Position numbers and translations under genes: made by a program. This document shows positions 16,118 to 33,234 of a stretch of 64,000 bases of DNA, in pieces. This DNA is from Candidatus Thorarchaeota archaeon (GTDB lineage Archaea > Asgardarchaeota > Thorarchaeia > Thorarchaeales > Thorarchaeaceae): NCBI GenBank assembly GCA_020348985.1, contig CP070761.1, forward strand, positions 3,093,243-3,157,242, written 5' to 3'. The stretch's first letter is position 1; every line of letters starts with the position of its first letter. Below the pieces are notes generated by a model. That model was not told where the DNA came from and did not search any database. It saw only the letters and a program-made list of their open reading frames with translations.

Positions 16118-19100
16118 TTAGCCAGCTGACGAAACAAAATCCTCGGCAAGAATCTTGTCAAGTGTCTTAACGATGCGGTCGGCGTCGATCTTGGAGAAGA
16201 CCAGAGAGGGTTTGATTATCAGAACATTGTGGTGGATTCCGTCAGAACCGATCATAATCTGATTGTCCTTCATGCGCTCAGCAATGTACCTCGCCTCTTC
16301 GGCAGCGGGCTTCAATGAATCACGATCTCCTACTAGCTCAACGCCGATGAAAAGCCCAGAACCTCTGACATCACCAATGATGCTGTGCCTATCGCCCAAT
16401 TGACTCAATTGCTCGATAAGATAACTTCCTGTGGAGTGAGCATTTTCCTGCAGTGCTTCTTCTTCGAGGACATCTAGAACAGTAAGTCCCACAGCACACG
16501 ACACAGTATTGCCTCCTGTGGTGCTGAACCATTCCATACCCGCTCCAAGCGATTCTGCTATCTCACGTGTAGTTATGACTGCACCAATGGGATGTCCATT
16601 GCCTATTGGTTTGCCAAGAGTGACTATGTCTGGAACGACACCCTGTGTCTCAAAACCCCAGAAGTGAGTTCCAACTCGTCCGAAACCAACTTGGACTTCA
16701 TCCACAATGCAGATACCGCCTGCTTCTCGAACATGTCGAAACGCGCTCTTCAGGTACTGTTCTGGAAAAACAATCTGTCCTCCACAAGACATGATTGACT
16801 CACAAAGGAAGGCCGCAGGCTTCCTCCCACTTGCAGCCAGTTCATCGACTATCTCCTTCAAATCTGTCGCGTACTTCTTTCCGGCTTCCGAGTCTGATCT
16901 TCGATAAGGTCCCCTGAATGTGTCTGGAATCCGCACCTTATGGACATGTGGTGGCATGCCTTTCCCACCAGGGCCCTCGGACTTGTACGGACTCAGACCA
17001 ACCAAAGCTTCCGTGTTGCCATGATAGGCCCCTTCGATGACAATCATGTCCTCATTGCCCGTGTAGGCTCTGGCTAGTCTAAGTGCCAGCTCGTTTGCCT
17101 CGCTTCCGCTGTTCACGAAAAAGCAGATACTCAGTGGCATTGGGAACTTGGTACACAGCTTCTCAGCATACTCGACGAGTGCCTCATGTATGTAGCGTGT
17201 GTTGGTGTTTAGGACTGCCGCTTGCCTCTGCAATGCTTCGACGACTTTGGGGTGGCTGTGGCCAACAATCGGCACATTGTTTCTAGCGTCGAGGTATGCT
17301 CTGCCGTCCTTGTCGTAGAGATACTGCATGTATCCCTCTACAATCTCAATCGGCTCCTCGTACATAAGGCTGAGAGAACTACTCAGCCTCTGACTCCTGA
17401 TATCCAAGATTTCGTCGCGGCCTAGCCTTTCAACTCGCACGGGCTTATCGGGGAGTCCAAGAATGACGTTGGGGTCCGGCGAAATGCTCTTCCAAAGCTG
17501 TCTCCGGTTTGGACTTGCGGCTCCGAAAAAGTCACCTTCTCTCCCAATCATGTCAACAATGACCTGAAAGTGAAGATGTGATGGCCAGCCACCATTGGTC
17601 GGGTATTCGCCCACTTCTCCTATCTTGTCCCCTTTCCTGATCGAACTTCCTTTGACTAGGTTATCAATCGAGTCCAGAGAGAGATGAGCGTACAGAGTGT
17701 AGAACTTCAGATCAGAATTCTCGATGCTATGCTCAACAACAATCGTGGGACCGTTGTCAAGTGGAGAGTCATTGTTTCTGAAACTGTGAATCGTTCCATC
17801 AAGCGGAGCAAATAGCGGTGTTCCGGATTCAAGAAACAGGTCAATAGCCAAGTGCACTGTCCTTGATTCGGGGCCATCGATTCCCATCAAAGAGTACTGA
17901 TCTCCGGCATAGATGAGCCGGGCCTCGTCATATCGTCCGACACCATATTCCGCCAGTTCGTCTCTCAGCCGAGCCTCAATCATTCTGCTCCACTTCTCAA
18001 TTTCCATCAGGTCGCCTAGGGTGCCAAATTCAGTGGAGCCTGCAGACAGGTCAAAGACCACATGAGGTGTCGAAGAAAGGTCAAAGTCAACGATAGACCC
18101 AATCTTCTTGCGGTTCTTCTTCAACCACTCAGTTACCTCGCTACTTTTCTGGCATGGAACGAGGTCACAAGCATCACGGAAGGTGTATGTAACAAGCCGC
18201 GGGTTTACTACTCTGAGCTTCTCGAGAGCCTCCCACGCCATCTCCTCACTTATTCTGAGGTATTCGTTTTGGGGCTCCAACTTGCTTTGGTAGGCCGCAA
18301 TGGCCACTGTCATTGTCAACCTTGTACAAATCATGTAGAAGAGAAGGTCGATTTCATGTTCTTCTAAAGGAAACACTGAATGATAGCCCTTGACTACTTC
18401 CGCTGCAGCAGCGATTGGATCTGCATGACCAAGAACTGCGTAGGCAATCGCTATGGCCAGCTCGAAAACAGTGTGACTGAATACAAGGTCGCCGAAGTCG
18501 ACTACACCAAACCGGGATCGATTGCCAGGTACAGCCCAATCAACTATGACATTGTAATCATTGAAGTCATTGTGAACAACGCTCTTTCTCAAAGTCGATA
18601 GAGCCGGCTTGACTCTGTTTTCGTATTCACTAAGGAAGTGTTTGACGATTCCTTGCTGAACGGGGTCCCCTATATCCCCAACGTGTTTTGGGATTACTTG
18701 GTCCGCGTTCTTCATGTCCCAATATAAGTCCCTGTGAGCTGCAGGGTGTTTGAAATCTTGAAGCGCCTTCGTCACTGAACCTATGAATTCACCAAACTCA
18801 CGGAGCAATTTCGTCGAATGAGGATTGACCTTTGCATACACTTTCCCAGGAACATAACGAAGCAGTCTCACCATGTAGTGGTTTCCCTGTGGATCGTCGA
18901 CAATCTCAATGTACCTGCCTTCCTTGCTTTTCGTGGGTGTTGGGCATAGCATCAATCCTGTTTTGGCAACAATGTGGAGCATTGCGGAGTTTTGTGATTC
19001 GATTATGTCGCGTTCATCTGAAAGTGCTGAGAACTTCAGGACAAACTCCTCACCCGAGTCTGTCCTTACGTAGTAGTTGCGGTCTCGCTCGCTTGGCAGT

Positions 19101-19204
19101 TCTCTCAAGTCGCCAACTGCAGAGAAAATGTCTTCTGCCACTTTGGCTGCTTCCTGTTTGTCGAACCGTGGGCGAAAGGCGTCTTTTGTTGACATGTGAG
19201 TCAT
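16118..19204 (-). CDS. APH-type kinase + M23 peptidase + class-III PLP aminotransferase/phospho-lyase fusion (hydroxylysine kinase/phospho-lyase type)
   Basis: HNDFNDYN and DFGD kinase motifs; HLAID and HLHFQ M23 motifs; [28 protein letters not shown] motifs. Confidence 0.9.
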
Positions 19205-19343: not shown

Positions 19344-19766
19344 ATGCCGTTTTTTGAGAGCACTGAGCAGTTCAAGGAAGTCTTCGACAGGTTCTGGGAA
19401 CTCGCCATGGAGGAGACAGAGGTCATCGAAAAGCTAGGGAAATCCCAAATCGTTGTCAGATTCGACATCGAACAACCAGAAGTCCACTTAACCATCAACT
19501 TCCGAGACCCTGGTCCGGACGGTGAGATCGGGACATTGTCCTACAACGCAGACGTTGAGCCGGAAATCACCGTCTGGTCAACTTCGGAAACCACCAACAA
19601 GTTCTGGCAGGGTAAGCTTAACGCAACTGTGGCCATGGCAAAGGGCCAGGTCAAAATGCAGGGATCTATTGCCAAGGCACTTGGATTGCTGTCCAAGATT
19701 AAGCCGCTCTATAAGTTCTGGCCCGAAGTCCTTAAGGAGAAAGGCTTGGACAGCATGGTCTTGTGA
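19344..19766 (+). CDS. SCP2 sterol/lipid-binding domain protein
   Basis: FWQGKLNATVAMAKGQVKMQGS..AL.L SCP2 pattern. Confidence 0.85.
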   Translation: MPFFESTEQFKEVFDRFWELAMEETEVIEKLGKSQIVVRFDIEQPEVHLTINFRDPGPDGEIGTLSYNADVEPEITVWSTSETTNKFWQGKLNATVAMAKGQVKMQGSIAKALGLLSKIKPLYKFWPEVLKEKGLDSMVL

Positions 19767-19881
19767 CCAGCGTGACCAGGATCGTGCAACGACGGAGGTT
19801 CAGAAAGCAAAGTATATTAGCCTAGAATTGGGCCTTTAGCTTGTAAGACAATATTAACCATTGTTAAACAGGTGAGATATC

Positions 19882-20100
19882 ATGGCTGAAGCAATCACAA
19901 AGACAATGACGATTGGAGAAGTCGTCGCGAAATGGCCCGAGACTGCAGCAGTGTTCCTCGAATGGGGTCTTCACTGCTACGGATGTGCAGTCGCCAGATA
20001 CGAGAACATTGAGCAGGGTGCAACTGCCCATGGCATCCCGGCTGATGATCTGGTAAAGGCGTTGAACGAGGTTGTTGCCAAGACCTCAGCGACCGCATAA
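19882..20100 (+). CDS. DUF1858 (hybrid-cluster-associated redox disulfide) domain protein
   Basis: ITKTMTIGEVV.KWPE..VF..GLHCYGC..E.IEQGA.AHGI. Confidence 0.9.
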   Translation: MAEAITKTMTIGEVVAKWPETAAVFLEWGLHCYGCAVARYENIEQGATAHGIPADDLVKALNEVVAKTSATA

Positions 20101-20116
20101 GCCCAGAATGAGAAGC

Positions 20117-20980
20117 TCAGGTACGGCCGTATAGGCGGCCTGATTCTTCTTCCGTCATCTCGAAACTGTGAGTCTCATCCGGAAAGACGCCAGCTCTTAC
20201 TTCTTCTGAGTATGCCTTCACTGCCTCAGAGATCACTGATCGAATGTCTGCATACTTCTTCAAGAACTTCGGCTTGAAATCCTCGAAGAGACCCAGCATA
20301 TCCCAGAGAACAAGGACCTGACCGTCGCAATATGGACCTGCGCCTATTCCGATAGTAGGAATTCCTACTGACTCAGTGATCAGTTTGGCAGTCTCTGTTG
20401 GCACGAGCTCGATGACCATTGAGAAGGCTCCAGCCTCTTCGATTCTCTTCGCTTGCTCAACAAGGACCTCGGCACCATCTGCCGTCCGTCCTTGAACTCT
20501 ATATCCGCCTAGTTCGTAGATTGACTGTGGGGTCAGTCCGATGTGGCCCATAACAGGTATGCCAGCATCCACTACAGCAGCGATTTTGTCAACAACATCT
20601 CCGCCGCCCTCAATTTTCACAGCCTCAGCCCCTCCCTCTTGGAGCATCCTACCGCAGTTCTCTAGAGCTTGGGTCTCGCTCACCTTGTAGGACATGAAGG
20701 GCATGTCACCAACAATCAGACTGTTGGGGCGAGCACGAGAGACCGCCTTGCAGTGATGAATCACATCATCTAGTGTAACAGGAATTGTACTCTCGTAGCC
20801 CAGTAGTGTATTTCCGACCGAATCGCCCACAAGGATGAGGTCTACGCCGCAGTCGCTTAGAATTCTGGCAGTAGGAGCGTCATATGCTGTTAGCATCACG
20901 ATCTTCTTGCCCTTCTTCTTTTTTCCCCGGATTCTATAAGTAGTGACTCTGGCCATTATCGTTTCACTTCCCAGGTCCAT
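20117..20980 (-). CDS. panB: 3-methyl-2-oxobutanoate hydroxymethyltransferase
   Basis: MLTAYD, LVGDS, GDMPFMSY, VKIEGG, GHIGLTPQS, IGIGAG..CDGQVLV. Confidence 0.97.
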   Translation of the reverse strand: MDLGSETIMARVTTYRIRGKKKKGKKIVMLTAYDAPTARILSDCGVDLILVGDSVGNTLLGYESTIPVTLDDVIHHCKAVSRARPNSLIVGDMPFMSYKVSETQALENCGRMLQEGGAEAVKIEGGGDVVDKIAAVVDAGIPVMGHIGLTPQSIYELGGYRVQGRTADGAEVLVEQAKRIEEAGAFSMVIELVPTETAKLITESVGIPTIGIGAGPYCDGQVLVLWDMLGLFEDFKPKFLKKYADIRSVISEAVKAYSEEVRAGVFPDETHSFEMTEEESGRLYGRT

Positions 20981-21014
20981 GTCGGACCATCATATATAGA
21001 GTTCCCATCAGACA

Positions 21015-21947
21015 ATGGTATGTCTGGGTATGGTATATATTTCCCATAGGAATCAAGGCATTGAGATGCGTGTAAGCCTAGGTTTAGATGCGTTAGTTTT
21101 ACCGGCATTTTGGGAGTGTGTCTTGGTGAAACCGAAAGTCGCAGTTGTGGATGCGGATTCCTTCGGTGAAGCAGTAGACCTGATAGGCGGTTTAAGCGAT
21201 CTGAACAATCAGGATAGAGATGTCATCGTGAAGGTCGGAATCTACAATGTTACTACAGGAATCTGTTCAACAGTGAAGACTGTCAACTCAATTGTAGAAT
21301 CTTTTGACGAGGTGCCAGCCATTCGCATAGCAGAGTCTGACAGTGGTGCAGGTCCGGGACTAGAGCGGTTGAAGTTATGGAATGAATGCTTCAACAGCAG
21401 GGTCACTCCATTCAATCTGTCAGATGATGAAACCAGGGAAGTCAGAGTTGCCGGGGAGACTGTTCCTTTTTCCAGTACTCTGCTCGGGCCAAAGACATTC
21501 ATCAGCACACACGTACCAAGAAGGTATGAAGAGGCTGGACTCGAGGATCTCATGAACCTTGGATCTATAATCAAAAACCTCCTGGGTCTTGTTCTCGACA
21601 CGAAGAAGCACAGATTTCACGAAGAGCTTCCAAATGCTCTGCTAGATATGTATGAAGCTTCAGGAGGCATAGACCTCGCAGTACTAGACGGAACCAAGGT
21701 CTACTTGGGCAAGAAGAAGGAGCGAGCCATTGCATCTCCAAATGTGTTAGTTGTGGGAAGGGATGCATTTGCTGTAGAAGCAGTAGGAATGCACCTTGTG
21801 GGGTTTGACCCTCTCGAAAACCCCGTACTTCTAGAAGCCAGAAGAAGAGGCTTGGGTGAAATCGATGTTGAGAATGTCGACATTATTGGTGACATCGAGA
21901 CCCCACGAAGTCTGGTTCTTGAGGCCTTCAAAGACCTGTCTTCCTGA
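21015..21947 (+). CDS. DUF362 family protein (start probably ~21126)
   Basis: VIVK, IAESDS, IKNLLG..KKHRFH, LAVLDG, DAFAVEAV..G.DP..P.L.EA..GLGE. Confidence 0.8.
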   Translation: MVCLGMVYISHRNQGIEMRVSLGLDALVLPAFWECVLVKPKVAVVDADSFGEAVDLIGGLSDLNNQDRDVIVKVGIYNVTTGICSTVKTVNSIVESFDEVPAIRIAESDSGAGPGLERLKLWNECFNSRVTPFNLSDDETREVRVAGETVPFSSTLLGPKTFISTHVPRRYEEAGLEDLMNLGSIIKNLLGLVLDTKKHRFHEELPNALLDMYEASGGIDLAVLDGTKVYLGKKKERAIASPNVLVVGRDAFAVEAVGMHLVGFDPLENPVLLEARRRGLGEIDVENVDIIGDIETPRSLVLEAFKDLSS

Positions 21948-21956
21948 AGTAAATTA

Positions 21957-23957
21957 TCAGGTGACAGATTCCTTTCTTACAACATATACGTCAGACCTAG
22001 GAACATACGCACCTTTCAGGTATCGTCTGAGAAGAGACAACGTCGCGTTTCTTCGAAGCCCTCGTTCTCGTGCAAAGGAAGTCACTCGGATCACTCGTTC
22101 TTCTTGTGCGTAATCGCGCAGGCCTTCAACCCATATCCCGTCTACAATCACGCCAGCTTCTTCGACCACGAACTCGTTGTCTCCGACATGTGGTTGAATC
22201 ACACCAAGAACTTCTTCAGGAACTAGGGCGAGTCCCCTTGCCGTCGCATCGAAATCGAAGACACCTTTCTTCGTAAGCGTCTGCTTCATTAGTTGAACCA
22301 TGACTCGAGGTGCAACAAGCTTCCCTCTCGCAGACTTCAACGCATCAAGATGCATTCGGTCAACAAGTCGTTCCAGATCTGCAACGTCCAGACCTCGTTC
22401 TTCAGCTATCTGCGGTGGGTCAAGAACCCCTTTCTTGGCGAAGATGGCACGCATTTCCTGCTCAATCTTCTGCGCTGGTATTAGCGCGCCTTCGCCATCA
22501 ATGAAAGCGTCTACTTGAACCTGCGACAGAATGGCTTCTGCAACGCGAACTTCAATTTCGAACTCCTTTGCTAGAGTCCCCGGATCAACTAGCTCACCCT
22601 TGGCGACTTGGCTTTCAATTCGCTTCCTTATCCAAGTTAATGAGAGATGATCCCCTGAAGGAGTAGCCACTGTCTTTAGGCCGAAACGTTCAAGCAGCAT
22701 ACGAAGTTGTATGCCAGCAAGACTCCAAGTCTCCTCAACCTCGTTTGCTCTGATGAATCCTGATTCCTTTATCGAGTCAAGGAGCCATCTCCTGAACTCT
22801 TGTAGTGATATGTATCTGCCATCAGACCCCTTCCTCAGTCCTGGAATCTGACCGATCAGCTGCTTGATTAGTGTTGCACTGACGCCGAGAGCTTTTGCAG
22901 TCTCGTCTGCTATGACCATCCCACTCAGTGCAAGGTCTTCTTTGATCCTGTCAGTTAGATATGTCAGCAGCACAACAGAGCCATAATCTGTTCGGACAAA
23001 CTGATGCCCCGCTTTTCGGATATGGCGGAGAATCTCTGATTCGCCAACGTGCAGCCGTTCTGTCTCCTTGTCGAGCTCCAGAATTCCTTCCGCCATTATC
23101 TTCTCTATTATGTCCCCCTCAAGAAGATGTGCAGGCACCAAACGGCCATCAGTTGTCTCAATCATCTTCCAACCAAATCGACGAATCGAATTGTGAATAT
23201 CTCGGGAATCTAGGTCCAGTCGAGTCGCAAGTGACTCAGGCGCGAGAAACCCTTCCTGCTCAATTCCCTTCTCAAGAGCCCTCTGCAACCAATTGTAAGA
23301 AACAAGTTGACCTAGTCTTGTCTCGACTAGGTTCCAGCCCCAAGTCATAACGAGGCGAACCAATTCATCTCTCTTTACCCTTATCCTTTGTGACTCCGAA
23401 GTAACATCAATCCGTCCATGTAGTTCAAGGAATTCTTTGAGACGATCCTTTAGTTCAGGAACAAGAATGAAATCTCCGTCTTCGGTTCTTACAACATCAA
23501 GCCCCTCGCTCCTGCAGACAGCTTCGACAATCTCTACAATCTCGGATTCGGTTAAATCCCATCTACTTGATTCACCAGAAACATGAACTGAGCCACTTTC
23601 CATTAGTTGAGAACGAAGACGATCTGTGAGCAATGGCGCTGAAATCACAGTGCTACCAGAGTAGCTCAGAATTGCATTCCTGCTTGCTTTGATAACGCTC
23701 TTCATAGCTGACATATCGAGGCCTTTCTTGTGCAGTGTCCTTGAAAGTACCTCAATTGATATAGAAGGTTGGATTACGAGAATTCTGTCGAGATGTTCGA
23801 TCTGCAGCCTCCTAACTCTGGAAGTCCAAGCATAGAGACCGGCTCCGATGCCCCCTAGAATCAGGAGTGCAGTCAGCATTCCCCAGAAGGGGTCCGCTAG
23901 GAACTCGAATTGAAGTAGCGCACTCTTTACTGCGCTACTAGAGAGTGATTCGTTCAC
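21957..23957 (-). CDS. Membrane-anchored tandem winged-helix repeat protein (UFL1/DDRGK1-like)
   Basis: One N-terminal TM helix, then ~11 repeats of ~55 aa (L...G.hxhxxhA..hxh....h..hh...G..hh.T.DG.hh); overlaps the ATPase stop by 20 bp. Confidence 0.7.
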   Translation of the reverse strand: MNESLSSSAVKSALLQFEFLADPFWGMLTALLILGGIGAGLYAWTSRVRRLQIEHLDRILVIQPSISIEVLSRTLHKKGLDMSAMKSVIKASRNAILSYSGSTVISAPLLTDRLRSQLMESGSVHVSGESSRWDLTESEIVEIVEAVCRSEGLDVVRTEDGDFILVPELKDRLKEFLELHGRIDVTSESQRIRVKRDELVRLVMTWGWNLVETRLGQLVSYNWLQRALEKGIEQEGFLAPESLATRLDLDSRDIHNSIRRFGWKMIETTDGRLVPAHLLEGDIIEKIMAEGILELDKETERLHVGESEILRHIRKAGHQFVRTDYGSVVLLTYLTDRIKEDLALSGMVIADETAKALGVSATLIKQLIGQIPGLRKGSDGRYISLQEFRRWLLDSIKESGFIRANEVEETWSLAGIQLRMLLERFGLKTVATPSGDHLSLTWIRKRIESQVAKGELVDPGTLAKEFEIEVRVAEAILSQVQVDAFIDGEGALIPAQKIEQEMRAIFAKKGVLDPPQIAEERGLDVADLERLVDRMHLDALKSARGKLVAPRVMVQLMKQTLTKKGVFDFDATARGLALVPEEVLGVIQPHVGDNEFVVEEAGVIVDGIWVEGLRDYAQEERVIRVTSFARERGLRRNATLSLLRRYLKGAYVPRSDVYVVRKESVT

Positions 23958-26877
23958 TTCTCAGCCTCTTCTTGTAGATCTCCATCCCAACTATTGCAGG
24001 CAATGAAAGCACGATACATACAATCCAATCGAACAACGTCAAAGGTATGAAGTAGAAGTGAAGGCCATACGTTGACAGGATTTCTGGGACCAGTGGGTGA
24101 TACATAAGGAGGAAGTGAGCCAGATATATCAGACCCAAGAAGGGTACAAATCTACCGGTGCCAGGTTCACGCAGACTGGATGTTATTGGCATGTTGATTC
24201 TTCTGATGATCAGCACAAGAGTGCTCTCGACAAGAAGAATCACTGTCAAAAGCATCACTGCAGCCTTTGCTTCATAGACCGTTCTTCCTGCCTCAAATGG
24301 CTCTACTACTGGATAGAATCCTTCGAGATTCTCAGGATAGATGCCGACAATTCCGAACCAGCCAGTATAGGTTAGGAGGTAAGCCATACCGGCTCCAAGT
24401 GCCATTAGAATGACGTTTATGGCCATGAAACGAGCCATCTGCTTAGTGATTATTTCTTCACTATCGCGGGGTTTCTCTTTCATTGCCCCAGGTGATGTTT
24501 TGTCGAAGACAAGTGCCAATCCAGGGAACGAGTGCGTTGTGACTACTAAATAGAGTGCTTGCCAAGTTGTTAGAAGATTGATGACTTCGGGAAGAATGAA
24601 CATGGCCCCGAAGAATATGATGCTCTCGAATAGGTTGATGGCTACGTAGAAGTAGATCATCATTCGAATCTTGGTGAAAAGACCACGACCCTGGTGGACT
24701 CCGGTCACAATAGACGCAAAACTGTCATCAGTAATGACGAGGTCCGCGGCCTCTTTGGCAACATCGGTACCTGTTATTCCCATCGCGATTCCAGCATCAC
24801 TCATCGCCAAGGCAAGCGCGTCATTAACCCCGTCCCCGGTCATTGCAACTACTTTCTTCTGATTCTGATATCTTTCGACGATGACCTGTTTGTGTGCGGG
24901 ATTAACTCTTGCGAACACGTTGACCTTCGCAAACTCGTGCTCTGTTAGCGTCTCTATCTGGCCTCCTTCGACTACTAGCGAACCGGGTTCGTGGATTCCA
25001 AGATTCTCAGCGATTGTCTTCGCAGTGGCTGAAGAGTCGCCAGTGATCATCACGACATTGATTCCTGCACTGTGACAGGCACTCACTGCTTCTTTGACTC
25101 CTTCGCGTGGAGGATCGACAATGCATACAAAGCCCAAGTAGATTAGATCCTTCTCCACCTTGTCCCTTATGTTCGCCCCAGATGGTATCTCATCTAGGCG
25201 TTGATAGGCAAAAGAGATGACGCGGTACCCTCGTGCAGCAAATCCGTTTACCTGTGCTTGAATTCGTTTGGCGTCGTTTTCGTCCATTGCGGAAGGTCTC
25301 CTGCCTCCATTCATCAAAGCACAGCGGGGCAAGAGGACTTCAGTTGCACCCTTGGTAAACACCACAAGTTTCTTACCGTCTTTGCATACCTTTGACATTC
25401 GTTTGAGTTCGGATTCGAATGGAAACTCCTTCTCGATCTTGTACTTCTCTCGAAGCTCCTCTTCATTTACACCACTCTTCCTAAATAGGGTAAGAAGAGC
25501 GGCATCTGTTGGATCACCAATCGGAATCCAATTCACGCCTTGATCCGGGATCTCTCTTCGCTCAATCTCCGAATCGTTGTTGATGCCCCCATTGGCTATT
25601 ATGCGATGAAGTCCCTTCCATCCAAGAACATCGGTCACTTTGACTGCTTCGCTTGGTTTGAAGAGATCCAAGGAAGAGTCGTCTGGAAGACGAAGAATCT
25701 CCCCTATGGGCTCGTACCCTTCACCTGTAACATGATAGAGGTTCTCAGTATCCCAGATGAACTTCACCATCATCTGATTCTTGGTCATCGTCCCAGTCTT
25801 GTCTGATGCAATGACGCTGACCCGACCCAGGCTCTCGACTGCTGATAGATCACGAATAATGACTCCTTTCCTTGCCATTGCTAGGACACCAGTTAGAAGC
25901 ACAATAGTCGTTAGCAAGGGTATGTTGATTGGCATGATAGTCATTGCTTTCGTTATACCTATGCTCAGAGTCTCAGCAATTATATTGATTCCGAGATCTA
26001 TCGGATTGCCAAAGAGAAACGGAACACCGAAGACCGGCCACAAGACAGAGAGAATCATTAGGAATACTGCTGCTGTGGCGAGATACTTTGCAAGAAGATT
26101 CACCTTCTTCCGCAACGGGATGTCGCCCGTGTTCAGTTGCTCCAGTTCTCCCTGAATCTTTCCAATCTCCGTGCGTCCACCCGTCTCCGTGGTGACGAAA
26201 GTCGCTGTGCCTGTTGCAACATACGTTCCAAAGAATACGATGTTAAACATGTCTGTGAGTGGAATATCCCGTTTGAGTACAGGATCACTCTCCTTGTTTA
26301 CTGGTATGCTTTCACCGGTCAATGATGCCTCGTTGGTAGTCAGATTTGTACATGTGATAATTCTACCATCTGCTGGTATTCTGTCCCCTTGTTCTAGTTT
26401 GACTATATCTCCAGGGACTATTTCGTCAGGAGGTATGGCCGCCTCGCTTCCGTTGCGAATAACACGTGCCTCACCCGCAGAGAGTTTCTCCAGGGCCTCA
26501 AGCTTCTTCTGTGCCCTATATTGCTGAAAGATTGCCACAAGAGCATTGATGAGCACAACACCCAACCAAATAGTTGCTTGTGCTAGCTCATTGTTGGCAG
26601 TTGGAAACATGTATGCGAGTCCGACCAATGCAAAAGAGCTGACCAGGTATATCGTAATGAGCCAATTCATTATAGGTGCCAAATACACCTGCCAGAATGT
26701 ACCCTTGATCTTTGGAATTGTGTTTGGCCCGTATTTGCTGGTTCGAGAGGAGACATCACTGCTAGATAGGCCGTTCTCGGCGCTAGCTGAGAAGACCTGA
26801 AGGACCTCTTCAATAGACATGGCTTGATACTGACTCTCAGCAGATTCTGATTCAGTGATGGCGTCGCTTTCAGACAA
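23938..26877 (-). CDS. P-type ATPase, P2A-like scaffold with atypical transport site
   Basis: TGES, DKTGT, KGA, DPPR, MITGD, TGDGVNDA present; TM4 PINIP and TM6 VVTTHSFP deviate from Ca2+ pumps. Confidence 0.93.
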   Translation of the reverse strand: MSESDAITESESAESQYQAMSIEEVLQVFSASAENGLSSSDVSSRTSKYGPNTIPKIKGTFWQVYLAPIMNWLITIYLVSSFALVGLAYMFPTANNELAQATIWLGVVLINALVAIFQQYRAQKKLEALEKLSAGEARVIRNGSEAAIPPDEIVPGDIVKLEQGDRIPADGRIITCTNLTTNEASLTGESIPVNKESDPVLKRDIPLTDMFNIVFFGTYVATGTATFVTTETGGRTEIGKIQGELEQLNTGDIPLRKKVNLLAKYLATAAVFLMILSVLWPVFGVPFLFGNPIDLGINIIAETLSIGITKAMTIMPINIPLLTTIVLLTGVLAMARKGVIIRDLSAVESLGRVSVIASDKTGTMTKNQMMVKFIWDTENLYHVTGEGYEPIGEILRLPDDSSLDLFKPSEAVKVTDVLGWKGLHRIIANGGINNDSEIERREIPDQGVNWIPIGDPTDAALLTLFRKSGVNEEELREKYKIEKEFPFESELKRMSKVCKDGKKLVVFTKGATEVLLPRCALMNGGRRPSAMDENDAKRIQAQVNGFAARGYRVISFAYQRLDEIPSGANIRDKVEKDLIYLGFVCIVDPPREGVKEAVSACHSAGINVVMITGDSSATAKTIAENLGIHEPGSLVVEGGQIETLTEHEFAKVNVFARVNPAHKQVIVERYQNQKKVVAMTGDGVNDALALAMSDAGIAMGITGTDVAKEAADLVITDDSFASIVTGVHQGRGLFTKIRMMIYFYVAINLFESIIFFGAMFILPEVINLLTTWQALYLVVTTHSFPGLALVFDKTSPGAMKEKPRDSEEIITKQMARFMAINVILMALGAGMAYLLTYTGWFGIVGIYPENLEGFYPVVEPFEAGRTVYEAKAAVMLLTVILLVESTLVLIIRRINMPITSSLREPGTGRFVPFLGLIYLAHFLLMYHPLVPEILSTYGLHFYFIPLTLFDWIVCIVLSLPAIVGMEIYKKRLRSERITL

Positions 26878-26984
26878 GATCCTTCCCTCGTCTTCTAGTG
26901 GTCTGCTTCAGTCTCCTCACAGATAAATGGTCTCGTTACAAACCCATCTGATAGAGAGTACGTTCGAATTGCCCTGCGGGCCTT

Positions 26985-29069
26985 TTGAAAGTTTTCAGCA
27001 CAAAGGAGGTGGACCGAAAGGTCTCAAATGCATCGGTCGATAGGTTCATCTTAGTCAAAAATGAGAGCTTATTGCCGCGCGCGGTACAACACAATCTGGT
27101 GCAGACAATGTCGTACTACTGGGAATATCAGCCGACACAAAGCAAGCCCCCGTCGTCTAGCATCAGAATCATCGGCGTCATTGTGATTCTGATGTTGATA
27201 GTCGCCACAGGTCTGGTCATGCTAATCCCTGATTTTCGCGGGGGTGCTCAACCTGGCGAAGAAGTACGAGTTGCTGTTGTAGATTCAGGTGTCAACTCAG
27301 ACTTTGCCCTTATAGGACGAATCGTGGCTGAAAGGAGCTTTGTGTCAAGGGAGAATGGGTATGACTTCAATGAACCATCTCCGACTGACAGTGATCCCGA
27401 GGACGTCTCTCATGGAACTGTTGTGGCAACCACGATAGTGCAGAACAGTAACAACGCCATGATTGTGAACGCAAAGGTCCTGGATTCATCAGGTTTTGCT
27501 ACAACTCTTGGAATAATCGCTGCCATCGAGTGGGCAGTCGAACAGAATTGCAGTGTCATCAACTTGAGCCTTGGAGGAGCCCCCACCTATGGAGACCCTC
27601 TTGAGGACAGTGTGGAATGGGCGTTCTCAAAAGGTGTTGTAGTTGTGGCTGCAGCTGGCAATGACGGTCAAAACGGAGTGTCTGGAACATCAATTCATTC
27701 TCCCAGCGTCCATCAGCACGCACTGAGTGTCGGCGGGTTAGATGAGCAAGGGGCTCCGGCATACTATACGAGTATGGGCCCAACTCGATCCCGAAGCTTG
27801 AAACCAGACATTAGCGCCCAAGGATTCACTCAGACAACAACGGCAATCTACTACGGCACAAGTTTCGCGTCCCCGAAGGTCGCCGCCGCCGCAGTTGAGC
27901 TGATTGTCTTCTGTAAACAGAACGAGATTATGTACTCTCCAGGTTCTATAATGACAGCACTGCTTGCAGGTGCTACGCCCCTTCCATATTCATCCTATCT
28001 CGTTGGAGCTGGGAGACTTGACCTCCAAGCCTCCAAGTTGATCATGCTACAAAACTCAGTTGATGGAGGGCTGCCCCAGATCACTTTTGCACTCCCGGGA
28101 ACGCTTCCATTTGATTTTGAGAGACTTTTCTATGGAGACTCTTACCAATTCAACATCCATTTGCTGACGTCAGGGTTCACAGAGTACGATATTGAGGTGA
28201 CGAGCGCGACTCCCGAGATTTTCGAAATCCAGGCAAGTGTTACTCTGAATCAAAGCGACTTCGTTCCTTTGACCCTCAACATCCCCGCCGATGGTTTGTC
28301 CATTGTACAGGGACAGATTGATTTCGTGTCCCAAGATTATGGGAACTCAAGTGTCGAGTTTGAAGCTCAGATACACCACTCAAATGCCAGGGTTGCATTC
28401 GACATAAGCCATACCGGGTGGTCAATCGACTCATCCTATGGTCAATTCAGAGCGTTCTATGAGCTCCTTGTCGAGAACGATATATCGGTTAACGAGATTC
28501 GTGAAGGCACTGACATCACATCAGGCTTCCTTGACGAGTTTGATGCCGTCTTCATTCTGGACCCATGTGCTTGGAATCTAGATGAATCAAACCCTGCAAA
28601 CGTTTCTGAGTTCTCGATTCCGTTTAGTCCTGAAGAAACTCAAGCTTACAAGGATTACTTTGAAAATGGCGGAGGCATTCTTGTCGCCGGTCTTTCGAAC
28701 AACACGCTTGATATCCGATCCCTCAATACGTTCCTCAATTGGACCGGATTCGAGTTCGGTTTCAGTAGCATTTCTAATCAGGGAGACACAGTGGAAGTGA
28801 CCAATATTACCGCACATGCGGTGACAGTCGGAGTAGATAGCTTCGACTTTTCTGGCGCACCAATAACCGAGTTAGGCAATGGTACAGCGCTCGCTTTCTA
28901 CAATGGTAGACCAGTACTTGGAAGTCTTGAAGGAAGTCAGGGCGGCAGGATGATTGCAACAGGCACGAACTTCTTCCTCGACAATTGGGGATTGAATGGC
29001 ATGTACGATTCAGACGACAATGACAATCTTACCGTCAGGATTGCCCTCTGGTTGTCTGGACTGCTCTAG
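26985..29069 (+). CDS. Membrane-anchored S8 subtilase with C-terminal GATase/GIFT-like domain (Site-1 protease-like); start probably ATG 27108
   Basis: VAVVDSG, SHGT, AAGNDG, GTSFASP triad and oxyanion motifs; N-terminal TM; RVAFDISH..FYELL..FSPEE..YFENGGGIL C-terminal domain. Confidence 0.88.
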   Translation: MKVFSTKEVDRKVSNASVDRFILVKNESLLPRAVQHNLVQTMSYYWEYQPTQSKPPSSSIRIIGVIVILMLIVATGLVMLIPDFRGGAQPGEEVRVAVVDSGVNSDFALIGRIVAERSFVSRENGYDFNEPSPTDSDPEDVSHGTVVATTIVQNSNNAMIVNAKVLDSSGFATTLGIIAAIEWAVEQNCSVINLSLGGAPTYGDPLEDSVEWAFSKGVVVVAAAGNDGQNGVSGTSIHSPSVHQHALSVGGLDEQGAPAYYTSMGPTRSRSLKPDISAQGFTQTTTAIYYGTSFASPKVAAAAVELIVFCKQNEIMYSPGSIMTALLAGATPLPYSSYLVGAGRLDLQASKLIMLQNSVDGGLPQITFALPGTLPFDFERLFYGDSYQFNIHLLTSGFTEYDIEVTSATPEIFEIQASVTLNQSDFVPLTLNIPADGLSIVQGQIDFVSQDYGNSSVEFEAQIHHSNARVAFDISHTGWSIDSSYGQFRAFYELLVENDISVNEIREGTDITSGFLDEFDAVFILDPCAWNLDESNPANVSEFSIPFSPEETQAYKDYFENGGGILVAGLSNNTLDIRSLNTFLNWTGFEFGFSSISNQGDTVEVTNITAHAVTVGVDSFDFSGAPITELGNGTALAFYNGRPVLGSLEGSQGGRMIATGTNFFLDNWGLNGMYDSDDNDNLTVRIALWLSGLL

Positions 29070-29361: not shown

Positions 29362-30624
29362 ATGAAGGCCAACCACGACACGCAACGCAAAGAGGCCCCC
29401 AACATGAGCAAAGTGACCAACGCATCATATGCAGTTCTGATTGCTTGTGTCCTTGCTCACTTCATGAACCACGTTTACCACGGGATCCTATCTCCCTTTC
29501 TTCCAGTCATCACCGACGAACTCAGCCTGAGCTACACCGAAGCAGGTATTGTTACAAGCGCTGCAATTGTCACGATGACAATGGCGCACCTAGGAGTGGG
29601 ATATCTGAGCGACAAAGGTTGGGGAGATATTTTCATTCCCGCGAGCATACTCCTCAGTGCAGCAATTGTCCTATTCGCAAGCTTAGCAACAACATTCCTG
29701 TTTCTGGTGATGTGCATGGCTCTTCTTGGTATGGGAGCCTCTGGTTACCATCCGAGTGCTTTCCCGGCGCTTACCGTGAAATTCCCAAGAAGGTCACGCG
29801 CAAAAGCTACTGGGATGCAAGCTGCGGGTGGTCTAGTCGGCATGGCGTTGATCCCTTTATTGGGAGTAGTCCTGCTTGACATTCTGGGCGGTTGGAGAGA
29901 GTCAATGTTCGCCTTGGGCGCGGCCGGAATCTTTGTCTTTGTTCCTACTGCACTCCTAATGAGATACGCACGGAAAGAAGATGGATTTGTGGAGGCTACG
30001 GTTCCTATTCGAGAAGGACCAGAGGGATGGACTAGAGACTTCAAGCTTGCTCTTGGTGTGATGGGTCTCAGAGGAATACCATTCCGATGTACAACTCTTC
30101 TGATGCCCCTTTATCTTGTTGCCAGCTACGGTTACGAGCCACTGTGGGCAGGGTCTTTGACGACGCTGATGCTTGTTGCTGGCCTTGTCGGTCAGGCGGT
30201 TTCCGCACCCCTTTCTGATAGAACTGGACGAAGGGTTCCATACATAGTTATCTCGACTGCGGTGGTAGCCCCCTCCCTGTTGTTGCTGAACTTCGCTCTC
30301 GATCCTGTCTTTCTTATTCTGGTCTTGATAACCATTGGTTTCTTCTTCTTCTTTGGAGTACCTGCAACAACAGCCTATCTTACAGAGGTCACTCCAGCTG
30401 AATCCAAGGGTCTCGCATTCGGCATATTGTTCTCTTTCGGCGCCATACCAGGAGCCCTCTCTCCCGCAATCTTTGGCATTATCGGGGATTCATTCGGTCT
30501 GCCAGCGTCCATTCTATTCCTAGTGCTTATGGCGTTCTTCGCTTCGTTGATTGCAACCCTAATGAAAGACAACGAGGACTATGAACCCAAAATCCCTGTC
30601 GCTGCCACATTGATTAGCGAGTGA
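29362..30624 (+). CDS. MFS transporter
   Basis: About 12 TM helices; GYLSDK.W and LSDRTGRR motifs, GYHP. Confidence 0.92.
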   Translation: MKANHDTQRKEAPNMSKVTNASYAVLIACVLAHFMNHVYHGILSPFLPVITDELSLSYTEAGIVTSAAIVTMTMAHLGVGYLSDKGWGDIFIPASILLSAAIVLFASLATTFLFLVMCMALLGMGASGYHPSAFPALTVKFPRRSRAKATGMQAAGGLVGMALIPLLGVVLLDILGGWRESMFALGAAGIFVFVPTALLMRYARKEDGFVEATVPIREGPEGWTRDFKLALGVMGLRGIPFRCTTLLMPLYLVASYGYEPLWAGSLTTLMLVAGLVGQAVSAPLSDRTGRRVPYIVISTAVVAPSLLLLNFALDPVFLILVLITIGFFFFFGVPATTAYLTEVTPAESKGLAFGILFSFGAIPGALSPAIFGIIGDSFGLPASILFLVLMAFFASLIATLMKDNEDYEPKIPVAATLISE

Positions 30625-31484
30625 CCCGAGTGAGAGTGATGATCGACTATCATGTTCATCCCAACTATTCCCTGGACGCAGAGGGCAGCCTTGAGGAGTA
30701 CTGTGAAGTTGCGACAAGGAAGGGCTTACGGGAGATAGCATTCACTACACACTTGGACAGTGATCCTGCTACTGACGACTGCTTTGTAATCGTCGAGGGA
30801 AGAAGAATCGATGTACAATCAGGTTACTGGCTTGAGCACTACGAGGCCTCCGTAGCTGAGGTAGCTGATGAATATCGGGAACGAGGAATTGAGGTTCGTC
30901 TTGGGGTGGAGGTAGACATATACCCAGGTGTTGCCGAGAACCTTCCAGAAGCTTTCCACAGGACTGAGTTTGACATCATCATTGGCTCTGTTCACCTTAT
31001 CGATCACAGAGCAATCTCTGCCGAAGAGGGAGCGAACGCCGTGTTCTCGAAGTACGCAGTTGAGGAGCTGGGCCACAATTACTTCTCAATAATGACAGAT
31101 GTGATTGAGAGTTCGTTCATCAATGTACTTGGACACATCGACCTTTACAGACGCTATGGAGAGACCCACTATGGAGAAGCTATACACTCTCTCTGGAAGC
31201 CACATATGAAACTCTTGACGGAGAAGATGAAGAGATTCAACGTTGCCTTTGAGATCAACACTTCTCCGTGGAGGAAGGGTCAGTCGGAGACCATGCCATC
31301 ACGCCCAATCTTGGAAGCGCTAATTGAGAGAGGCATTACTCAATTGACTCTGGGTTCTGACGCACATAGACCTGAAGATGTGGGAGCGGGGGTAGATCGC
31401 TGTCTGAAGCTAGTTCAGGAAATGGGGTTCCCCTCACCCGTTGGTTTCAAGAAAGGTGTGCCGTACACAATCTCGGTCTTGTAG
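30621..31484 (+). CDS. PHP-family phosphatase (HisJ/HisK histidinol-phosphatase-like)
   Basis: DYHVH, FTTH, GVEVD, GSVH, GHID, EINT, GSDAH. Confidence 0.9.
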   Translation: MTRVRVMIDYHVHPNYSLDAEGSLEEYCEVATRKGLREIAFTTHLDSDPATDDCFVIVEGRRIDVQSGYWLEHYEASVAEVADEYRERGIEVRLGVEVDIYPGVAENLPEAFHRTEFDIIIGSVHLIDHRAISAEEGANAVFSKYAVEELGHNYFSIMTDVIESSFINVLGHIDLYRRYGETHYGEAIHSLWKPHMKLLTEKMKRFNVAFEINTSPWRKGQSETMPSRPILEALIERGITQLTLGSDAHRPEDVGAGVDRCLKLVQEMGFPSPVGFKKGVPYTISVL

Positions 31485-31984: not shown

Positions 31985-32638
31985 ATGACAGAAGACAATC
32001 AAGAAGTGATCAAGAGAGCGGTAACGCTCATTCAGGATGGTATGTGTAAAGAAGCCATCAGTGTGCTAGAAGCCCATCTTGAACACTACCCGGAGTCTCT
32101 GGAAGGGTGGTACAACCTAGGGATTGCACTCGGTGATTGTGAACGAGAAGAAGAGGCGGTCAAAGCGTATGATGAAGCTCTCGCCATAGACAATGAGATC
32201 TTCGAGATTTGGTTTAATAAAGGAACTGTGTTGTACGAGCTTGCTGACTTCAAGAGTGCGAAAGATTGCTATGCGAAGGCACTGGAGATTAGTCCAGATG
32301 ACGCTGAGGTTTGGAACAATCTTGGCAATTGTCACTCACGACTTGGGGATGGAAGGGCTGCAATCGAAGCCTACACGAGGGCTGTTGCCTTGAAGCCAGA
32401 TTATGCCGAAGCATTCTACAACAAGGCAAATGCCCACTTTATTGAAGGTGAAGATGAGAAAGCTGTTGCCTTTGCAGAAGTGGCTCTTCAACTTGACCCA
32501 GCTCTCAAGAAGCTTGTAGACCAATGGATACATGTTGCCTTATCACGACTGGAATCCGCCAGACTTGAGGCAGAGTATAGACGAAGGCCCAAAGAGGAAC
32601 AGCGCATCATTCCACCTGAAGAAGAGTCAAAGGAATGA
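31985..32638 (+). CDS. TPR repeat protein
   Basis: Repeats WYNLG, WFNKG, WNNLG, FYNKA at ~34-aa spacing. Confidence 0.92.
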   Translation: MTEDNQEVIKRAVTLIQDGMCKEAISVLEAHLEHYPESLEGWYNLGIALGDCEREEEAVKAYDEALAIDNEIFEIWFNKGTVLYELADFKSAKDCYAKALEISPDDAEVWNNLGNCHSRLGDGRAAIEAYTRAVALKPDYAEAFYNKANAHFIEGEDEKAVAFAEVALQLDPALKKLVDQWIHVALSRLESARLEAEYRRRPKEEQRIIPPEEESKE

Positions 32639-32685
32639 GCGATTCATCAAACCTAAAAGGATGATTCCCAGAGCCCCCCAAGTGA

Positions 32686-33234
32686 TTGAGTATGAGCCTA
32701 GAGAGTAGTGCCAGACGTAGTCCAGTGAAGAGTGCGCTCACTGTAGCATTCTTGATTCTCCTTGGCGGAATAAGTTACGCGTTTCTTCAAGTCCAAGGAT
32801 TCTTGCCGATTATTCCAGATCCTACTGTTATTCTTGGGTTCTCATTTCTGACGTTTGTAATCATAATCTGTTGCGGCACGAACATTCTCACAGGGACATA
32901 CATCCAAAGAATGACAGGATACAGCGAAGAAGAGGCAGAGTACAAGGAAGGGAAACACCTCTTTGACTTGGAGGAGTGGGAAGCAGCACTTGAGGTATTC
33001 AAGAAGATTCTGCACCCCGAAATGGACCATAGGAGAGCTCTGTTCTATGGAGCTCAGTGCTACTCAAAACTAGGCGAATGGGAAGGAATGAAAGAGTACT
33101 GCAAGCGATATCTTGAGCTGGTACCAAAAGATGCTGAGGTCTGGGAGATGCTATCTGAAGCCCATAAGCGTCTGTTCGAGTACTCTGAAGCAGAAGAGGC
33201 TATGCAGAGAGCTCTAGAGCTAGCTCCAAAGTGA
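32686..33234 (+). CDS. Two-TM membrane protein with cytoplasmic TPR repeats
   Basis: Two N-terminal hydrophobic helices, then ~3 TPRs (..RYLELVPKDAEVW..). Confidence 0.8.
   Translation: MSMSLESSARRSPVKSALTVAFLILLGGISYAFLQVQGFLPIIPDPTVILGFSFLTFVIIICCGTNILTGTYIQRMTGYSEEEAEYKEGKHLFDLEEWEAALEVFKKILHPEMDHRRALFYGAQCYSKLGEWEGMKEYCKRYLELVPKDAEVWEMLSEAHKRLFEYSEAEEAMQRALELAPK

Follow-up and report, generated by a model that had tools for sequence, protein, structure and literature searches.

This report concerns three adjoining genes in a window of 64,000 nucleotides from the genome of a Candidatus Thorarchaeota archaeon (contig CP070761.1, positions 3,093,243 to 3,157,242; G000:C1:3093243-3157242 in our numbering, on the single 3.16-Mb contig of genome G000). 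The genes encode an atypical P-type ATPase, a membrane protein with a long array of winged-helix (wH) domains resembling those of UFL1 and DDRGK1, and a subtilase of peptidase family S8. They had been proposed in an initial annotation of the window to form a membrane-proteostasis or lipid-sensing module that predates the endoplasmic reticulum (ER), a proposal that is not supported, given the loss of the wH gene from many genomes, the relocation of the subtilase gene in some, the lack of linkage outside one family and the lack of UFC1. We think it probable that the three genes represent two independent transcription units, which lie back to back by inherited gene order in one Thorarchaeota family, and that there is no three-part machine. 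Co-transcription of the ATPase and wH genes is the only specific linkage within the trio, and the wH protein is dispensable.

On this interpretation the first unit would be a bicistron, with the gene for an ATP-driven P2-like cation pump in first place and that for the single-pass wH protein in second. The wH protein would hang about 11 UFL1/DDRGK1-like winged-helix domains into the cytoplasm, most likely as a membrane-tethered scaffold on which a large cytosolic partner docks, much as the 60S ribosome does on UFL1-DDRGK1. The second unit would comprise a signal-anchored, outward-facing subtilase with intact catalytic residues, followed by genes for an MFS transporter and a PHP-domain protein, and the subtilase would most likely cut surface or extracellular proteins.

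The three genes and their arrangement

The features of the three genes are as follows, with positions counted from the first nucleotide of the window.

21957-23957, minus strand: wH gene, 666 aa, a single-pass membrane protein with about 11 tandem winged-helix domains, UFL1/DDRGK1-like
23938-26877, minus strand: P-type ATPase gene, 979 aa, P2-like, catalytic motifs intact, transport site non-canonical
26985-29069, plus strand: S8 subtilase open reading frame (ORF), 694 aa, signal anchor at the N-terminal end, beta-sandwich and alpha/beta domains after the catalytic domain
23938-23957, minus strand: overlap of 20 bp between the 3' end of the ATPase gene and the 5' end of the wH gene
23826-23888, minus strand: N-terminal membrane anchor of the wH protein, residues 24-44, from sequence and a modelled helix
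25918-25932, minus strand: M4 motif P-I-N-I-P of the ATPase, residues 316-320, standing where P2 pumps have PEGLP
26878-27107, no strand: divergent intergenic region between ATPase and subtilase genes, site of a rearrangement in genus g14
28062-29066, plus strand: post-catalytic region of the subtilase, residues 360-694, with a beta-sandwich and a Rossmann-like alpha/beta domain

The ATPase stop codon (TAG, 23938-23940) sits within the wH ORF, and the GTG at 23957 is the sole wH start codon upstream of the transmembrane (TM) helix, with a GAGG about 9 nt before it. The two genes are probably co-transcribed, and probably translationally coupled. The gap between the ATPase and subtilase genes is 107 bp if measured to the first TTG of the subtilase ORF and 230 bp if measured to the ATG at 27108. 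The latter is likely to be the true start, giving a protein of 653 aa and a spacer of 230 bp, because the alignment of orthologues begins there and the gene call on record is also of 653 aa. The initial annotation was thus right about the layout, having described three ORFs with a 20-bp overlap and a divergent subtilase some 100-230 bp away. It was also right that all three proteins are membrane-bound, as the ATPase has the N-terminal, E1-E2 and C-terminal Pfam domains of cation ATPases, the wH protein has its hydrophobic stretch at residues 24-44 and the subtilase has a strongly hydrophobic segment at about residues 60-82.

Conservation of the gene neighbourhood

The trio is found in one Asgard family only, and there it is part of a block of about 15 kb that also keeps the genes for PanB (ketopantoate hydroxymethyltransferase), SCP2, and the MFS and PHP proteins. 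Public records of the orthologous loci are mostly labelled Candidatus Thorarchaeota. We compared 16 wH loci, and in the 12 with contigs spanning the block the order is PHP-MFS-S8<>ATPase-wH-PanB-SCP2, with <> marking the divergent pair; the remaining 4 end at contig edges. The gap between ATPase and wH genes ranges from -53 to +29 nt in the 15 genomes other than G000. That between wH and PanB is 55-178 nt, with the exception of locus L035, where a nominal 44-nt overlap on the same strand comes from the longest-ORF start call.

Other genomes of the family lack the wH gene at this position. All 16 examined keep the block, with the ATPase gene running straight into panB, co-directionally and with a gap of about 90-140 nt. 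They include G320, of the same genus as G000, and also G323 and G347, in which the only wH gene is a distant paralogue at another locus. In 30 loci panB comes directly after wH, or after the ATPase gene if wH is absent, and MFS and PHP follow S8 in nearly all loci of the family.

At least 70 of the 85 other genomes of the family have an orthologue of the pump, with at least 61% identity as against no more than 39% for paralogues; if any pump match with E<=1e-100 is counted, paralogues included, the figure is 81 of 86 genomes with G000 among them. By comparison wH matches are found in 24 of the 85, three of them being distant paralogues at other loci without these neighbours. On a tree of the pumps (a quick IQ-TREE analysis in which the out-group branches are long) the presence or absence of wH requires at least five changes, and the wH-positive lineages are basal. 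This phylogeny indicates that the wH gene was ancestral and was then repeatedly lost. No column of the pump alignment separates wH-positive from wH-negative genomes.

The subtilase gene can also leave the group. In genus g14 (G385 and G386) it is no longer beside the ATPase gene and sits elsewhere in the genome. As MFS and PHP still come after it in G385, the break lies in the divergent spacer. Beyond the family, about 35 loci for pumps of the same PINIP type have no wH-like or S8-like ORF in their flanks as searched by tblastn and profile hidden Markov models, and seven loci of the S8 family (six outside the family plus a paralogue in G000) have no pump or wH neighbour. The synteny that the initial annotation proposed to test across Thorarchaeia and Asgard genomes thus exists within one family, where it takes in unrelated flanking genes as well, and does not extend beyond it. 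Because the adjacency is kept only in a broadly syntenic block with unrelated genes such as panB, we regard it as one inherited arrangement.

The winged-helix protein

Likeness of the wH protein to UFL1 and DDRGK1, as first annotated, is well supported. It matches the Pfam family for the UFM1 ligase (PF09743, E3_UFM1_ligase) over residues 130-259 with 31.6 bits against a cut-off of 23.2, and is the sole match to PF09743 in the G000 genome. A profile of 17 wH orthologues matches the DDRGK1-UFL1 chimera 8b9x in the PDB with an E value of 1.5e-7, in the N-terminal winged-helix region of UFL1. The AlphaFold2 model (predicted local distance difference test, pLDDT, 87.4) has a helix at residues 23-62 followed by 11 winged-helix repeats of about 55 aa, and in Foldseek its best match is UFL1 (8qfc_B, 3.9e-12), then 8ohd_A, 9gy4_E and 8b9x, with the winged-helix arrays of SelB next. 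Among structure clusters of the ESM-Atlas the nearest is one of Asgard DDRGK/UFL1/PCI proteins (about 790 aa) and the second is eukaryotic UFL1; a feature-based search of the Atlas with the wH protein found nothing.

The resemblance does not extend to whole proteins. The UFL1 C-terminal families PF23659 (UFL1) and PF25870 (WHD_UFL1_5th), which do mark the eukaryotic UFL1 cluster in the Atlas, have no match in the wH protein at E<=0.1 in the Pfam scan. The DDRGK domain (PF09756) has no match in it either, and elsewhere in G000 only sub-threshold ones.

The hydrophobic stretch at residues 24-44 lies within the modelled helix and is followed by RVRR, which by the positive-inside rule would place the array in the cytoplasm, as in DDRGK1. 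The array has an overall isoelectric point (pI) of 5.8 and is thus mildly acidic, and several single repeats are basic (pI 9.4-11.7).

This is a small family, with 72 matches at E<=1e-3 among 1.84 billion representatives, of which about 17 are full-length. In-frame TAG codons that were apparent in the matches from G336 and G382 were not reproduced, both loci having yielded an ORF uninterrupted by stops. In some of the distant relatives the winged-helix block comes directly after a TM helix, behind the PKD, DUF2341 or NosD ectodomains of large surface proteins, and in others it is fused to TPR repeats or to PCI and DDRGK domains, in some cases with a VPS28-like domain (P0024, P0027, P0033, P0042, P0047, P0048 and P0050). 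A membrane-proximal cytoplasmic winged-helix array would thus be a recurring Asgard design, which fits a generic role as a cytoplasmic adaptor.

UFM1 machinery in Asgard genomes

The E2 enzyme of the UFM1 pathway, UFC1 (PF08694), has no candidate in G000 and none in any of the 85 other genomes of the family. The absence is meaningful because in 18 of 400 Asgard genomes, all of them outside this family, the same profile does find UFC1 above the Pfam cut-off. The profile for Ufm1 itself (PF03671) has no match in G000, but as it also has none above cut-off in the 400 Asgard genomes it is uninformative here. As the lineage is without a UFM1-type E2, the wH array cannot act as a UFM1 ligase.

The UFC1-like E2 frames are of about 190-280 aa and occur in five Asgard families (for example in G109, G111, G011, G012, G015 and G016), with none in the Thorarchaeota-type family f1. 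They conflict with the statement that UFC1 is exclusive to eukaryotes (PMC10183829).

The P-type ATPase

The ATPase has the Pfam domains Cation_ATPase_N, E1-E2_ATPase, Cation_ATPase, Hydrolase and Cation_ATPase_C, and the P-type motifs TGES, DKTGT, KGA, DPPR, MITGD and GDGVND are all intact. It is below every NCBIfam equivalog cut-off, the best being the PMR1-type TIGR01522 with 457 bits against 798, and TIGR01116 giving 422 against 703. The best matches in the PDB are all cation pumps, headed by LMCA1 of Listeria (2.4e-119).

It is the transport site that sets the protein apart. In the alignment with LMCA1, M4 has PINIP, with Ile in place of the Ca-binding Glu, and M6 has TTHSFPG, with Val and His for Asn and Asp (His replacing Asp), while M5 keeps N..E. 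Across 30 orthologues, with wH or without it, these motifs vary little or not at all. We infer that the pump is not a Ca pump, because two Ca-binding carboxylates are lost (M4 Glu to Ile, M6 Asp to His), and its substrate may be the proton or another metal cation. The comparison with SERCA and P4-type pumps made in the initial annotation was apt in so far as the protein is an atypical P2-like pump. We also considered a P4 flippase, given PINIP at the position of PISL, and rejected it as TIGR01652 gives only 104.5 bits against a cut-off of 431.

A scan for the pattern MPINIPLLTT found pumps in Loki- (Lokiarchaeum ossiferum), Odin-, Heimdall-, Hermod- and Atabeya-type Asgard genomes, and also in Nitrososphaeria, Bathyarchaeia and two bacterial metagenome-assembled genomes (Aerophobetes and Dehalogenimonas). 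Those outside the family have 37-50% identity. Judged by sequence, the PINIP pumps are a separate clade found in Asgard lineages, in some of the Thermoproteota and in a few bacteria. A second PINIP-pump clade, with about 48% identity, is present in a genome labelled Thorarchaeota (locus L148).

The subtilase

The Pfam domain Peptidase_S8 covers residues 91-330 of the subtilase, and the catalytic triad with the oxyanion Asn (D100, H143, N226 and S293) is invariant in 12 orthologues. The sole hydrophobic segment is N-terminal, at about residues 60-82, and the C-terminal end is a soluble helix. There is no prodomain: no I9 match was found, and with the catalytic domain beginning about 10 residues beyond the TM helix there is no room for one. 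The ectodomain has 10 N-x-S/T sequons, compared with 1 in the wH array; these counts are suggestive only, and would fit a protease outside the cell and a wH array inside.

The initial annotation described this protein as like site-1 protease (S1P, MBTPS1), and for that the answer differs between fold and sequence. The structure model (pLDDT 66) has S1P as its top Foldseek matches (9csd_A, 1.4e-25; 8uw8_A, 1e-24; about 615 columns). In a VIA comparison, residues 92-694 of the model align with residues 210-874 of S1P 8uw8_A with Z 28.4 and a root-mean-square deviation of 3.4 over 476 residues. Other solved subtilases align over 219 residues only, and S1P is the sole solved chain to align across the whole ectodomain. 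By sequence, however, subtilisin BPN' (1.4e-23) is a closer match to the catalytic domain than S1P (1.8e-14), and the C-terminal half has no sequence match in the PDB and no MBTPS1 Pfam domain. A search of 5.8 billion proteins with the C-terminal region gave only Thorarchaeota-type S8 peptidases and no eukaryotic S1P. Weak matches in the post-catalytic region were to ThuA in 2 of 12 orthologues and to ABC_transp_aux in 1 of 12. We therefore have moderate confidence, given the pLDDT of 66, in an S1P-like architecture of the whole ectodomain, as a matter of modelled fold only. Profile and structure searches thus bore out the proposed link to UFL1/DDRGK1 in both sequence and fold, and that to MBTPS1 in fold, with nothing in sequence or Pfam for the C-terminal half.

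The C-terminal domain family is present in 232 of the 400 Asgard genomes. G000 itself has a paralogue outside the window (L081, G000:C1:192460-193533, in a frame of 695 aa), which has about 35-40% identity and is S1P-like. This paralogue has no pump or wH neighbour, and most genomes of the family also have it. In one analysis the S1P group was hypothesised to be of eukaryotic origin (PMC6713707).

Alternative explanations

The closest rival to two independent units is that the wH protein is a true accessory subunit of the PINIP pump, be it as regulator, as localiser or as tether to a ribosome or other machine. The two genes are always co-directional, overlapping or with gaps of -53 to +29 nt, in 16 genomes, and each wH orthologue found occupies the position after the ATPase. 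A TM helix with a cytosolic array would also suit lateral association with a pump, and by analogy other P-type ATPases have single-pass partners. However the pump has been kept at 61% identity or more, with its transport site invariant, in genomes that have lost wH at least five times, a relative of the same genus among them, and no column of the pump co-varies with the presence of wH. PanB is equally co-directional with the pump when wH is absent, so that adjacency is weak evidence, and no wH gene adjoins any of the PINIP pumps examined outside the family. We think such a subunit rather unlikely. An alternative for the array alone is that it binds nucleic acids, as a membrane-tethered anchor for DNA or RNA or an anti-sigma-like tether for a transcription factor, and is not a protein scaffold. 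Winged-helix domains commonly do so, the SelB arrays that are the next-best fold matches after UFL1 bind SECIS RNA, bacterial multi-HTH_17 proteins are among the Atlas neighbours, and there are the basic repeats. Against this the array as a whole is mildly acidic, no DNA-binding family is above the Pfam cut-off in the protein, and the best matches in sequence and fold are UFL1 and DDRGK1. The winged-helix domains of those proteins serve as scaffolds for proteins and ribosomes, UFL1-DDRGK1 docking on the 60S ribosome. We consider nucleic-acid binding as the role of the array to be very unlikely.

The comparative data largely refute the proposal of an archaeal module for membrane proteostasis or lipid sensing that unites all three proteins and is ancestral to ER quality control, and we give it hardly any credence. 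The genes do adjoin, the best structural or sequence counterpart of each protein is among ER and Golgi proteins, and the divergent S8<>ATPase pair is kept in most genomes of the family. But the protease and the wH array are on opposite sides of the membrane, outside and inside respectively, the transcripts are divergent, and the synteny covers the unrelated PanB, SCP2, MFS and PHP genes equally. Moreover wH is dispensable, S8 is relocated in g14, the genes are not found together beyond a single family, the S8 family itself is widespread with paralogues that lack these neighbours, the pump is not P4-like and the family is without UFC1. A more limited link to eukaryotes would be that the bicistron preserves an ancestral, UFM1-independent UFL1/DDRGK1 job, in which a winged-helix rod docks ribosomes or another large machine beside the pump as a pre-eukaryotic form of the ribosome-membrane tethering of the ER UFMylation platform, and that the S1P-like family of Asgard genomes is separately the prokaryotic root of site-1 protease. 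Taken as a whole we find this distinctly unlikely.

Several points weigh against our preferred interpretation of two independent units. In every genome with a wH gene the coupling to the ATPase gene is tight, and all wH orthologues found lie beside the ATPase, so a direct partnership of pump and wH protein retains some chance; the cases of adjacency descend from one ancestral arrangement and count as about one event. Many of the out-group flanks are short (8 kb or less, some at contig ends), and more distant linkage there could be missed. The Pfam Ufm1 profile was blind in the 400 genomes although nine Asgard clades are reported to have Ufm1 homologues (Köstlbacher et al. 2026, PMC12962969), and only the absence of the E2 carries weight. 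Lastly the subtilase model is only moderate.

As a working unit the trio would mean that membrane quality control of ER type existed before eukaryotes. The comparative data argue against such a unit and so remove an attractive but misleading "proto-ER" story. A UFM1-independent function of Asgard UFL1/DDRGK-type proteins has been proposed (Picchianti et al.), and the general point is thus already known. A TM-anchored UFL1-like scaffold in a lineage without the UFM1 E2 supports the published idea that UFL1 and DDRGK1 are older than UFM1 and once served another function. For work on the origin of eukaryotes, an Asgard-wide subtilase family with an S1P-like whole ectodomain should be useful (compare PMC6713707), as should the P2-like pumps, a conserved clade in which the ion site is rebuilt.

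Other genes near the block

Two groups of genes flank the trio in the window.

29362-31484, plus strand: MFS transporter and PHP-domain genes with a 4-bp overlap (Pfam), downstream of the subtilase in the conserved block
19344-21947: SCP2 and PanB genes, minus strand, and DUF362 gene, plus strand (Pfam)

PanB and SCP2 are members of the conserved block. The DUF362 gene (21015-21947, plus strand) lies between wH and panB; it converges on wH, and 9 bp separate it from the wH stop. It is absent from this position in the other 30 loci examined and is thus an insertion in G000. Further along, at 16118-19204 on the minus strand, is a gene for a 1028-aa fusion of phosphotransferase (APH), Peptidase_M23 and class-III aminotransferase domains, which is kept near the block at about 50% identity in several genomes of the family. 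Downstream of PHP, at 31985-33234 on the plus strand, are genes for two adjoining TPR-repeat proteins of 217 and 182 aa. The TPR fusions among the distant wH relatives (P0040, P0049 and L084) may be compared with this pair.

Comparison with known systems

With regard to the P2A Ca2+-ATPases (LMCA1 9euq and 6zhf, PMR1/SPCA, SERCA), the pump shares their domain set, catalytic motifs and ten-TM layout, its best sequence matches are to them (2.4e-119 to 1e-99), and it retains the M5 Asn and Glu. It differs in having PINIP for PEGLP in M4 and Val/His for Asn/Asp in M6, and in falling below the equivalog cut-offs.

The eukaryotic UFL1-DDRGK1 (UFBP1) complex is the scaffold of the UFM1 E3 ligase (PF09743, PF09756; 8qfc, 8ohd, 9gy4, 8b9x, 8c0d), and the tandem winged-helix array is common to it and to the wH protein. 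With DDRGK1 the wH protein also has in common a single N-terminal TM anchor and, if the predicted orientation is right, an array facing the cytosol. However it is one chain of about 650 aa with some 11 winged-helix domains, not a two-protein complex with a composite one; it is without the UFL1 C-terminal families, comes from a lineage without UFC1 and is limited to one Asgard family. The Asgard DDRGK/UFL1/PCI proteins of about 790 aa (an Atlas cluster with 77 Promethearchaeota-type members; P0054 and P0065) are in the same superfamily of winged-helix arrays. They have PCI and DDRGK Pfam domains and mostly no TM helix, whereas the wH protein is TM-anchored, has no PCI or DDRGK match and is probably co-transcribed with a pump.

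In the case of S1P (MBTPS1/SKI-1; 8uw8, 9csd, 8uwc) the likeness is in an S8A catalytic domain with intact D-H-N-S followed by post-catalytic domains, and both proteins have a membrane anchor and a catalytic domain that lies away from the cytosol. S1P itself has an N-terminal prodomain that is processed autocatalytically, and it cuts membrane-bound transcription factors after motifs of the R-x-x-L type. The subtilase differs in lacking a prodomain, a SPRING partner, a known substrate motif and any sequence or Pfam match for its C-terminal domains, and in having its anchor at the N-terminal end and not, as in S1P, at the C-terminal end.

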